Shown piece after piece: positions 56,660 through 58,570 of a stretch of 64,000 bases of DNA. A model generated the notes under the pieces. The model did not search any database. It was not told where the DNA came from and saw only the letters and a list, made by a program, of their open reading frames with translations. The DNA lies in the sequence record MZ234013.1, one strand, 5' to 3'. The position numbers were made by a program, and so were the translations under genes. This DNA comes from Escherichia phage vB_EcoM-101112UKE3-1. Numbering within the stretch: position 1 is the first letter of the stretch; each line of letters begins with the position of its first letter.

Positions 56660-56746
56660 GGGGAGTTATCCCGTAGAGGTAGCGGTGTGGACTGTAAATC
56701 CATTGTCATTGCGACTCGGGTGGTTCGACTCCATCACTCCCCACCA
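56660..56746 (+). tRNA. tRNA-like gene, anticodon GTA (Tyr-type), class II with long variable arm
   Basis: Acceptor GGGGAGT/ACTCCCC (7 bp), anticodon stem GTGGA/TCCAT with loop cTGTAAa, variable-arm hairpin GTC/GAC, T-arm GGTGG-TTCGACT-CCATC, encoded CCA; D-arm spacing atypical. Confidence 0.5.
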
Positions 56747-56792: not shown

Positions 56793-57458
56793 ATGCATTT
56801 TTATCTTTATAAAATAACAAATAAAATTAATAATAAAATTTATATTGGTGTGCATTCTACCGAAAATTTAGATGATGGATATATGGGTTCTGGTAAATTA
56901 TTAAAAAGAGCCCAAGACAGGTATGGTATAGAAAATTTTTCTAAAGAAATATTAGAATATTTTGATGATAAAGAATCTATGCTTGAAGCCGAGAAAAATA
57001 TTGTTACAGAAGAGTTTTTAAATAGACCAGATGTGTATAATTTAAAACTTGGCGGTGAAGGCGGATGGGATCATATAAATATTCCTGAGATGCTAAATCA
57101 GAAGAAAGACGCTAGTTTAAAAGGAGCTAAATCGTTTAAGTCACGTTTTAAAAATGATATTTTACTTCAAGAAAAATATCGTCAAAATGGTTCAAATGTA
57201 TTTAAACGTTTATGGTCAACTCCTGAATACAAGGAAAAATTTTTAAATAATAGCAGATTTTTAAATAAGCATCATACTCTTGAAACTATTAATAAAATGA
57301 AAGAAATTCACGCTAAAAATAATCACCAGAAAGGTGAAAAGAATTCCCAATTTGGTATGATGTGGATTCATTCATTAGATGAAAAAGTTTCTAAACGTAT
57401 TAAGAAAACTGACCCAATTCCAGAAGGATGGTTTAAAGGTCGAAAAATGAAATTTTAA
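56793..57458 (+). CDS. segB: SegB GIY-YIG homing endonuclease
   Basis: GIY-YIG motif FYLYKITNKINNKIYIGVHST...GYMGSG; start at internal ATG with AAGGA RBS gives 221 aa as in T4 SegB; location inside tRNA cluster as in T4. Confidence 0.8.
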   Translation: MHFYLYKITNKINNKIYIGVHSTENLDDGYMGSGKLLKRAQDRYGIENFSKEILEYFDDKESMLEAEKNIVTEEFLNRPDVYNLKLGGEGGWDHINIPEMLNQKKDASLKGAKSFKSRFKNDILLQEKYRQNGSNVFKRLWSTPEYKEKFLNNSRFLNKHHTLETINKMKEIHAKNNHQKGEKNSQFGMMWIHSLDEKVSKRIKKTDPIPEGWFKGRKMKF

Positions 57459-57463
57459 ATTAC

Positions 57464-57538
57464 GTCCCGCTGGTGTAATGGATAGCATACGATCCTTCTA
57501 AGTTTGCGGTCCTGGTTCGATCCCAGGGCGGGATACCA
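57464..57538 (+). tRNA. tRNA-Arg (anticodon TCT)
   Basis: Acceptor GTCCCGC/GCGGGAT with CCA, T-arm CCTGG-TTCGATC-CCAGG, anticodon loop cTTCTAa. Confidence 0.7.
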
Positions 57539-57882
57539 AATGAGAAACCGGGTCGCTACCGGTAAGTCGTCGGACTGATGTTCCCTGTTTAAGGACTGGC
57601 ATTAATAAATCTTTATGTTTTGTTAATGCCCCCTTATATCACAGCAGAAACGGCGCACCGAATTATCGATTCGAGGAAATATCTTTGCCATAAGCCGAGT
57701 AGCGTTTTTGACGGAACGTTCGGATATGGTCGAGATATGGCCTTTTAAAAATATTGAGTAGCGTCAACTGCTTAATAACCGGGTTCGAATCCCGGCGTTT
57801 CGTACAAACACTTGCCTTAGCAGGTGGAACCCCGACAAGGTTGCCGCAAGGCTTAGCCCCGACCGAAAGGTTGGGGCTTTTT
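57539..57882 (+). ncRNA. candidate stable small RNA(s) (T4 rnaC/rnaD-like region) ending in a terminator
   Basis: About 340 nt without a plausible ORF, containing hairpins (ggcattaa...ttaatgcc) and a tRNA-like T-arm CCGGGTTCGAATCCCGG; exact RNA ends not determinable by eye. Confidence 0.45.
57855..57882 (+). terminator. rho-independent terminator (agccccgaccgaaaggttggggct + TTTT)
   Basis: 10-bp stem, GAAA loop, T-run. Confidence 0.7.
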
Positions 57883-57928
57883 AGTATAAATAAGTATATT
57901 AAAACCCCGAATTAAAACAGGAAATAAG

Positions 57929-58402
57929 ATGAAATCATATACTCAATTTTTAAATGAAGCGGTGTTAAATGAAGCATCTAGCACTGAAATTCAAGCTGTT
58001 GCAAAAGCTGCCATTGCCGCGGGTAAATATTCCTATAAAGATGCTTCCGATGAATCACGATTCCAATTTGCTCGTGATATGAAAGCCGAAGGATTTACAG
58101 GGAATGCAGTTAGTATGGCTTGGAAAAGTTTAGTTGCTACTGGAGCTGCTTTTGCAAAGGCTTCAGGTAAACCTGCTCCTAAAGCAGATCCTAAAGTCAC
58201 ACAAGAGAAAAATATTGTTAAAGGAATTATCTCCAAATATGAAGCTATCCTTAAAGAGCTTTTAGTAATCAAAACTGAAGGCCAAAAGCTAGCTCGTGCT
58301 TATAGTTTCAAAGATAACCCACATGTTCACTCTCTTGAGTATGTTGAAGACATCCAAAAAATTATTAAAGACCGCATTTGGTCTGCTAAACAAATCAAAT
58401 AA
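57929..58402 (+). CDS. hypothetical protein with CTS-like N-terminus (MKSYTQFLNEA), possible internal protein
   Basis: 157 aa; N-terminus fits MK[TS]Y..F[IL].E pattern of T4 internal proteins; Ala/Lys-rich. Confidence 0.55.
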   Translation: MKSYTQFLNEAVLNEASSTEIQAVAKAAIAAGKYSYKDASDESRFQFARDMKAEGFTGNAVSMAWKSLVATGAAFAKASGKPAPKADPKVTQEKNIVKGIISKYEAILKELLVIKTEGQKLARAYSFKDNPHVHSLEYVEDIQKIIKDRIWSAKQIK

Positions 58403-58409
58403 CATTCTT

Positions 58410-58437
58410 AGCCCCGACCAAAAGGTTGGGGCTTTTT
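58410..58437 (+). terminator. rho-independent terminator (agccccgaccaaaaggttggggct + TTTTT), near-identical to the one at 57855
   Basis: Same stem sequence as the 57855 terminator with a 1-nt loop difference. Confidence 0.7.
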
Positions 58438-58570
58438 GGTATCTAGGCCTTTCCGGGCCTCTCTAGACATCATTTAGTTTCTACCCTTTATAATATATTA
58501 TCCTATCTTTTAATTGCCCCTCCCTGCCCTAGAATTCCCTAAAACTTTTTAAAAATTTTTTCACAAAACT

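Follow-up and report, generated by a model that had tools for sequence, protein, structure and literature searches.

The tRNA region of phage T4 encodes two small stable RNAs, species 1 and species 2, the products of rnaC and rnaD, which have been known since the 1970s. In the T4 genome (NC_000866) the gene order is tRNA-Arg, rnaD, rnaC, with rnaD annotated at 71053–71171 as "small, stable RNA; species 2 RNA" and rnaC at 70908–71046 as "species 1 RNA", and the record of phage RB33 annotates the two genes in the same way. The T4 tRNA cluster is described as giving one ~1.75 kb transcript, the precursor of eight tRNAs and of the species I and II RNAs, and its transcription terminates past the species I RNA gene (PMC2330249). 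RNAC and RNAD of T4 have been seen by RNA-seq and RNAC also by Northern blot, and both are classed as late RNAs (PMC9697503). The initial annotation of the DNA studied here called the functions of these RNAs unknown, which agrees with papers from 2010 (PMC3014915), 2022 (PMC9697503), and 2025 (PMC12685909).

Our window is the whole analyzed stretch of 64,000 nucleotides from Escherichia phage vB_EcoM-101112UKE3-1 (MZ234013.1), and the region of interest is 57539–57882, all of whose features lie on the + strand. It had been proposed from the letters alone that species 1 and 2 are encoded there. This proposal is upheld by alignment with T4, in which the stretch matches base for base in the same order after tRNA-Arg, and the T4 rnaD and rnaC genes align over their full lengths with 57540–57659 and 57666–57804, respectively, at ~95% identity and with full synteny. 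The mature ends used below are the T4 annotation coordinates mapped through this alignment. In a three-way alignment the overall identity is 92% and both RNAs are nearly invariant. The stretch is thus, with hardly any room for doubt, this Tequatrovirus's set of T4 rnaD and rnaC orthologs, which stand last in the tRNA operon, with a trailer and then an intrinsic terminator after them, and since both alignment and annotation match T4, the window comes from a T4-like phage. A megablast search with 57400–57950 returned 744 phage records, nearly all of them Tequatrovirus, and homologs of the stretch occur in about 800 phage records altogether. The identification is correct but already known; it re-finds textbook T4 genes and alone adds nothing new. 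For the account that follows as a whole, in which identity, structure, biogenesis, loop contact, and function are taken together, we would give a probability of roughly 0.8.

The upstream neighbor is a tRNA-Arg(TCT) gene with an encoded CCA (57464–57538), called by ARAGORN and identical to the T4 tRNA-Arg. It scores 48.8 bits with the Rfam tRNA model. The covariance search that had been suggested as a check matched neither rnaC nor rnaD to a family: Rfam 15 has none for either RNA, and nothing over them reached a gathering score. The rnaD 5′ end at 57540 is one spacer nucleotide past the tRNA-Arg CCA, which ends at 57538, and a 6-nt spacer, GAAUUA (57660–57665, from the mapped T4 annotation), separates rnaD from rnaC; in Karamvirus a like spacer of 4–5 nt lies between rnaC and the tRNA that precedes it. 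Beyond the shared order of tRNA-Arg, rnaD, rnaC, trailer, and terminator, the mapped boundaries and the helices are also the same in the two phages. They differ by a handful of substitutions, several of which are compensatory changes in the apical hairpin of rnaD (G-U to A-U, U-G to U-A). The rnaD gene is 120 nt here and 119 nt in T4, and its 3′ end reads CACCG here and CACCA in T4. The window also encodes a tRNA-Tyr and a SegB-like GIY-YIG gene; the upstream tRNA-Tyr and a cassette past the terminator with a 157-aa ORF are found in this phage and not in T4.

A 3′ trailer with three small hairpins (57805–57854) follows rnaC. It is near-identical in T4, where it lies beyond the rnaC annotation, so it would be removed from mature rnaC, and in phages without rnaC the trailer is directly 3′ of rnaD. 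It runs into the intrinsic terminator of the tRNA operon (57855–57883), AGCCCCGACC GAAA GGTTGGGGCT plus TTTTT, whose 10-bp stem (57855–57878) contains 7 G-C pairs; the strong terminator of the initial annotation is real. Trailer and terminator together fold with z = -4.8, better than all 200 dinucleotide shuffles. By homology with T4, discrete stable RNAs of ~140 nt (rnaC) and ~120 nt (rnaD) would be expected in this phage. When the complete precursor is folded, the minimum-free-energy (MFE) structure has the rnaC T arm paired with the region of the rnaD 5′ hairpin, and we regard this cross-pairing as an artefact of self-complementary CCGG because the local hairpins covary separately and each RNA exists alone.

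To compare structures, 23 distinct versions of rnaC were gathered from Tequatrovirus, Enterobacter Karamvirus phages, the Kanagawavirus Kosakonia phage 305, and unclassified IMG/VR genomes. The rnaC of this phage (57666–57804) is 139 nt long and has an MFE of -50.6 kcal/mol (z = -4.1), and none of 200 dinucleotide shuffles folds as well. The RNAalifold consensus of 22 of the 23 versions coincides with the minimum-free-energy fold of the rnaC in the window, a tRNA-shaped four-way junction. Standard pairs make up 98.1% of the cells in this 22-sequence alignment, and 22 of the 45 pairs show compensatory change. Neither figure was reached by any of 500 column shuffles, and when the partners were slid by one to three columns as a control only ~40% of the cells were paired. 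Covariation likewise supports the structure described below for rnaD, a 5′ hairpin and a rod-like stem-loop, and we are confident of both architectures.

The two ends of rnaC form an acceptor-like stem of seven positions, in which CGAUUCG (57667–57673) pairs with CGUUUCG (57796–57802) around two invariant U-U mismatches, and which stacks on the T arm. The end-to-end pair at alignment columns 4:139 is split evenly among the 22 sequences, 11 having A-U and 11 G-C, and the remaining four acceptor-like pairs are invariant. The T arm (57779–57795; CCGGG/UUCGAAU/CCCGG) has a 5-bp stem whose middle pair is G-C, U-A, or A-U among the relatives, with covariation at columns 120:132. A single copy of its 17-mer, CCGGGTTCGAATCCCGG, is present in the 64-kb window, and the T-arm-like element had been placed exactly there by the initial annotation; it is not an isolated element, the whole of rnaC being tRNA-shaped. 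In the L009-type rnaC the T loop is UGCAUGC, unlike the tRNA consensus. The D-arm position is taken by a long arm (57674–57743) of ~25 bp in four helical segments with the apical loop UUGACG (57708–57713), and the anticodon/variable-arm position by hairpin 2 (57752–57777), whose 10-bp stem carries the loop CGUCAA (57762–57767). Both are supported by covariation: compensatory changes are numerous in the long arm of KMB17, Kosakonia phage 305, and L131 (a divergent rnaC whose source is the IMG/VR scan) while its loop is unchanged, and hairpin 2 has compensatory change at eight of its 10 pairs with a loop invariant in all variants.

The likeness to tRNA (Rfam RF00005) thus consists of a 7-position acceptor stem to which both ends contribute and which is stacked on a 5-bp T stem (loop UUCGAAU), the four-way junction, and the location in a tRNA cluster with tRNA-like spacing. 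On the other side, rnaC is 139 nt long, has two conserved U-U mismatches in its acceptor stem, and is without a 7-nt anticodon loop, a D arm, or an encoded CCA. The 10-bp hairpin with its 6-nt loop and the ~70-nt arm occupy the anticodon-arm and D-arm places, and the 3′ end reads GUA and then CAAACAC, so that CCA is not encoded. With tRNA model scores that also fail (below), rnaC has the outline of a tRNA but is not a tRNA. Nor is it a tmRNA: it has no tag reading frame, ARAGORN made no tmRNA call in the window, and no Rfam tmRNA match was found.

Other tRNA-like RNAs that do not decode include the tRNA-like domain of tmRNA, the bacterial YrlA Y RNAs, the tRNA-like RNAs of the herpesvirus MHV68, mascRNA, and the precursor of the phage P1/P7 C4 RNA, and some of these are virus-encoded and of unknown function. 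What rnaC has in common with them is an acceptor/T module on a non-tRNA body and an expected maturation by tRNA-processing enzymes. The topology of YrlA differs, its ends making a Ro-binding stem and not an acceptor stem. None of these RNAs gave a sequence or Rfam match to the stretch, and rnaC resembles them only in principle. Among them, the phage P1/P7 C4 antisense RNA precursor is an RNase P substrate (PMC11143913).

The two rnaC hexamer loops, UUGACG (57708–57713) and CGUCAA (57762–57767), are perfect complements with a duplex energy of -5.5 kcal/mol. Both are invariant in every version, including those of KMB17, Kosakonia phage 305, and L131, in which the stems under UUGACG are entirely different in sequence. 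We roughly estimate that among three conserved loops two would match in this way by chance in about one case in a thousand. Covariation is uninformative on a loop-loop contact because neither loop ever varies, and on complementarity and conservation we put the chances that the two loops do make such a contact at about even. A contact of this kind would need the ~25-bp arm to be bent back onto the 10-bp hairpin.

The rnaD RNA (57540–57659; T4 mapping, MFE, and pair counts) comprises a 7-nt 5′ tail, a hairpin H1, an AA linker, and a rod closed by a stem P1. Its MFE is -36.9 kcal/mol (z = -3.1; none of 200 dinucleotide shuffles folds as well), and the same architecture is seen in single-sequence folds of six sequence types. 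An alignment of 19 sequences has 98.2% of its cells paired and compensatory change at seven pairs, and none of 500 shuffles matched it. H1 (57547–57563; ACCGG/GUCGCUA/CCGGU) covaries, A-U being replaced by G-C in L021 and L022 and C-G by U-A in the Vequintavirinae phage W70; Karamvirus and Jiaodavirus have another hairpin (AUCAGAA/UUCUGAU) in its position. In P1, which is taken from the MFE fold, GUCGUCG (57566–57572) pairs with CGGCGCAC (57651–57658), with C57656 bulged. This stem is the same in all 19 aligned sequences, and its motif recurs in the elements of Karamvirus, Jiaodavirus, and W70; because it never varies it is uninformative for covariation. Above P1 come an asymmetric internal loop (GACUGA/GAAA), the stem P2 (UGUU at 57579–57582 with AGCA at 57643–57646), and a second loop with a conserved CCCUG. 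P2 is supported by covariation at columns 42:114, its pair U57579:A57646 being A:U in six of the 19 sequences and broken in just one.

The rod ends in an apical hairpin (57598–57630; from sequence and MFE fold) with a 12-bp stem in which 57598–57609 pair with 57619–57630. The base of this stem, GGCATTAA at 57598 and TTAATGCC at 57623, is the ggcattaa/ttaatgcc hairpin singled out earlier, which is therefore a real feature. In the L034, G4507/L011, and W70 types the sequence of the apical hairpin is swapped wholesale and a hairpin is still present.

Two motif assignments for rnaD were tried and rejected. As a hammerhead (CUGAUG...GAAAC) it lacks the third helix, and no Rfam hammerhead was matched at E values up to 10; moreover, the U of CUGAUG pairs and covaries with the A of GCAG, and Karamvirus has a UUUAAU/AUUAAA helix there. 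The GACUGA/GAAA loop as a kink-turn is contradicted by adjoining bases that pair and covary and by a plain helix in Karamvirus. This internal loop may be a non-canonical G-A motif.

The distribution of rnaC and rnaD among phages makes them independent modules. In Karamvirus, rnaC lies between tRNA-Trp and tRNA-Gly with no adjoining rnaD, and an rnaD-like element is found ~1 kb upstream of it, directly after tRNA-Asn. Kanagawavirus has rnaC without an adjacent rnaD, and the rnaC copies of Kosakonia phage 305 and L131 have a protein gene in front of them and no neighboring tRNA. Elements like rnaD follow tRNA-Asn in Jiaodavirus KP182 and tRNA-Met in W70, where H1 is altered by compensatory substitutions, and rnaD and rnaD-like elements always start a few nucleotides past the CCA of a tRNA. 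In five T4-like genomes the trailer adjoins rnaD directly, with a clean absence of rnaC. The two RNAs were also sought more widely. A gapped rnaC pattern run against metagenomes (at least 120 matches), with a parallel IMG/VR scan and profile filtering, gave two new T4-like copies and the divergent L131 among the matches listed. The corresponding rnaD pattern had at least 120 matches in bacterial genomes, which were GC-rich, and none passed the profile among the matches listed; a 15-mer pattern for wider homologs gave mostly chance matches, and nearly everything listed by the metagenome and bacterial scans was likewise due to chance. As a side observation made by eye, the only sequence common to rnaC and rnaD is a short CCG(G)UAAG(Y)CG at a helix junction.

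By analogy with tRNAs, both RNAs are probably excised from the tRNA-operon transcript by host tRNA-maturation enzymes. The acceptor/T-arm minihelix of rnaC would be presented 4–6 nt past the preceding RNA, as one tRNA is after another in a cluster, and with such a minihelix and tRNA-like spacing RNase P would be expected to make the rnaC 5′ end. Its 3′ end could then be made by exonucleolytic trimming, and the 5′ end of rnaD would be linked to the way the tRNA before it is matured at its 3′ end.

As to function, our best guess, which draws on shape, location, and patchy distribution, is that rnaC and rnaD are trans-acting structured RNAs and that rnaC mimics a tRNA without decoding and so keeps occupied, or diverts, a protein that recognizes tRNAs. 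We offer it tentatively, as the role is possible and no better than that. Mimicry is suggested by a tRNA shape without anticodon or encoded CCA, and the target of rnaC would most plausibly be a host tRNA-directed defense nuclease or a tRNA-processing enzyme. With such a role, both RNAs would serve the tRNA locus as accessory functions that are host-specific and can be dispensed with. On laboratory strains T4 grows even when its tRNA region is deleted, which fits an accessory role and equally no role at all. Strict mimicry is weakened by the T loop, which is not universal (UGCAUGC in the L009 type). The neighboring tRNA-Tyr of the same locus counters the Septu defense in T6 (PMC13096335), and when a T4-like phage was evolved on a semi-permissive host, all three lines acquired one convergent SNP within rnaD (PMC12685909). 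These two observations and the patchy presence of the RNAs among close relatives fit a role in host-specific counter-defense or adaptation. A broader proposal makes rnaC and rnaD two separate classes of phage RNA that move horizontally and serve anti-defense or host adaptation, each neutralizing a host tRNA-directed nuclease or tRNA-processing factor, with rnaC a decoy whose body is locked by its complementary loops and rnaD a tRNA-linked rod shared by Tevenvirinae and Vequintavirinae; we consider this unlikely, and if true it would settle the role of RNAs found in the 1970s.

The alternative that survives best, to which we give slightly less credence than to the decoy, is that the RNAs are stable by-products or cis elements, structured spacers that steer or buffer the RNase processing of neighboring tRNAs or shield the 3′ end of the transcript, persisting by virtue of their stable folds and with no trans function. 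Both are co-transcribed inside or at the end of tRNA clusters (PMC2330249), and the fixed start of rnaD and its like just past a tRNA CCA is what such a spacer would show; close relatives may miss either RNA, and neither has a known target or partner. Against this stand the rnaC genes of Kosakonia phage 305 and L131, which adjoin no tRNA, the loops that stay invariant across genera while the stems are rewritten, the rnaD core kept between Tevenvirinae and a Vequintavirinae phage, and the convergent adaptive SNP in rnaD (PMC12685909). We therefore favor action in trans over a passive spacer because of the invariant loops on rewritten stems, the tRNA-free occurrence of rnaC, and the transfer of rnaD between unrelated phage groups.

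It is improbable that the two are regulatory sRNAs that base pair with phage or host mRNAs through their conserved loops. The unpaired rnaC hexamers and the internal-loop sequences of rnaD are indeed conserved, and the T4 RNAs accumulate late in infection and have been termed "small regulatory RNAs" in a paper that gives no evidence of regulation (PMC9697503). However, the mutual complementarity of the rnaC loops speaks for a contact within the RNA and not for an external target common to both, nearly all of each RNA is base-paired and neither offers a long single-stranded seed, and T4 has no characterized trans-acting sRNA (PMC3014915).

Relative to the recent papers, what may be new is the structure derived by comparison, the pair of complementary loops, and the modular way in which the RNAs are distributed; the four-way-junction fold of rnaC may already be present in older ones (Paddock and Abelson 1975; Mazzara et al. 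1981; Pragai and Apirion; Miller et al. 2003). Phage tRNA loci are now recognized as counter-defense loci, and the comparative features make the function of rnaC and rnaD directly testable. Mutation could be aimed at the end-to-end stem of rnaC, with its two conserved U-U mismatches, and at the complementary loops UUGACG/CGUCAA, and natural phages without one or the other RNA are ready-made controls.

The comparison also bears on annotation, as most of the ~800 homologous records leave the region blank, fill it with "hypothetical protein" ORFs, or call part of rnaC tRNA-Met or tRNA-Lys. The last of these calls amounts to the reading that rnaC is a decoding tRNA, formed by its 3′ 94–95 nt, which ARAGORN and the GenBank records take for tRNA-Met in phage PG7 and tRNA-Lys in phage G4507. 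A canonical T arm is there, and an internal ACGGAACG is able to pair with the 3′ strand; the best sub-threshold Rfam score over rnaC is that of tRNA-Sec (16.6 bits, with a threshold of 47). The cloverleaf of PG7 and G4507, with ACGGAACG as acceptor strand, is nevertheless ruled out by covariation, having none in its support and a pair 49:139 that is broken in 10 of the 22 sequences. The supposed anticodon is CAU, UUU, or not called among the relatives, the internal acceptor strand is wholly absent from the rnaC of KMB17, Kosakonia phage 305, and L131, the mature rnaC 5′ end of the T4 annotation is 45 nt upstream of the proposed tRNA start, and in the window neither ARAGORN nor the Rfam tRNA models make a call over rnaC. 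A decoding role is accordingly very improbable.

A small-protein reading of the region, implied by the "hypothetical protein" ORFs overlaid on it in many GenBank records, is refuted for practical purposes: the ORFs touching 57539–57882 are all of 53 aa or less, in line with the initial annotation, which saw no plausible ORF there, the two longest (42 and 53 aa) start with TTG and span the rnaD/rnaC and rnaC/terminator boundaries, they are not conservable because the flanks of rnaC in Karamvirus are tRNA genes, and the relatives show 1- and 2-nt indels in loops and paired substitutions in stems. A covariance model of the kind built here would mend such annotation; in the window our rnaC model finds a single copy at exactly 57666–57804, matched end to end with 161.6 bits.

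Public records, in line with an ARAGORN-type call, enter the 3′ two-thirds of rnaC as tRNA-Met in phage PG7 (positions 1554–1648 of locus L003) and as tRNA-Lys in phage G4507 (positions 1165–1258 of locus L005), and "hypothetical protein" ORFs have been placed across rnaC and rnaD in many other public records. These tRNA and protein features are annotation errors of a kind that a covariance model would clear.

An rnaD-like element is also present in Escherichia phage W70 (positions 1497–1597 of its locus L119), where it starts directly 3′ of a tRNA-Met. W70 belongs to the Vequintavirinae and is unrelated to T4; the conserved core strands of its element match their T4 rnaD counterparts almost exactly. 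The finding suggests that this small RNA gene has moved horizontally between phage families. In Karamvirus and Jiaodavirus, a further interval of about 140 nt, between the rnaD-like element and tRNA-Asp, carries no annotation (about positions 506–647 in L003, and likewise in loci L004, L120, L121 and L122). This stretch opens with a CCGAAAGU...ACUUUCGG hairpin and could be another stable RNA.

When the whole rnaD-rnaC precursor is folded, pairing is predicted between the 5′ part of rnaD (window 57540–57563) and the rnaC segment made up of the T arm and the 3′ strand (57778–57803). This pairing probably arises artefactually from the self-complementarity of CCGG; less probably, it is a structure specific to the precursor.

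Upstream, a SegB-like GIY-YIG homing endonuclease gene (window 56793–57458; Pfam GIY-YIG, 26.1 bits) separates two tRNA sub-clusters, its 3′ end lying 5 nt short of tRNA-Arg. Just 5′ of this gene is a tRNA-Tyr(GTA) (56660–56746), absent from T4, whose Rfam tRNA score of 30.2 bits is only just over the threshold of 29. According to a 2026 paper, T6 amplifies its tRNA-Tyr together with segB and thereby escapes the Septu defence (PMC13096335), so the arrangement in the window is of the T6 type.

Downstream, the operon terminator occurs twice in almost identical form (window 57855–57883 and 58410–58438), and a cassette of about 555 bp (57884–58438) lies between the two copies. T4, by contrast, has only one terminator, followed by the same sequence that lies 3′ of the second copy here, and so the cassette looks to have been gained or lost through recombination between the terminator repeats. 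The cassette contains a 157-aa ORF (57929–58402) with no Pfam match; just 5′ of this ORF is TATAAATA (57887–57894), which resembles a T4 late promoter.
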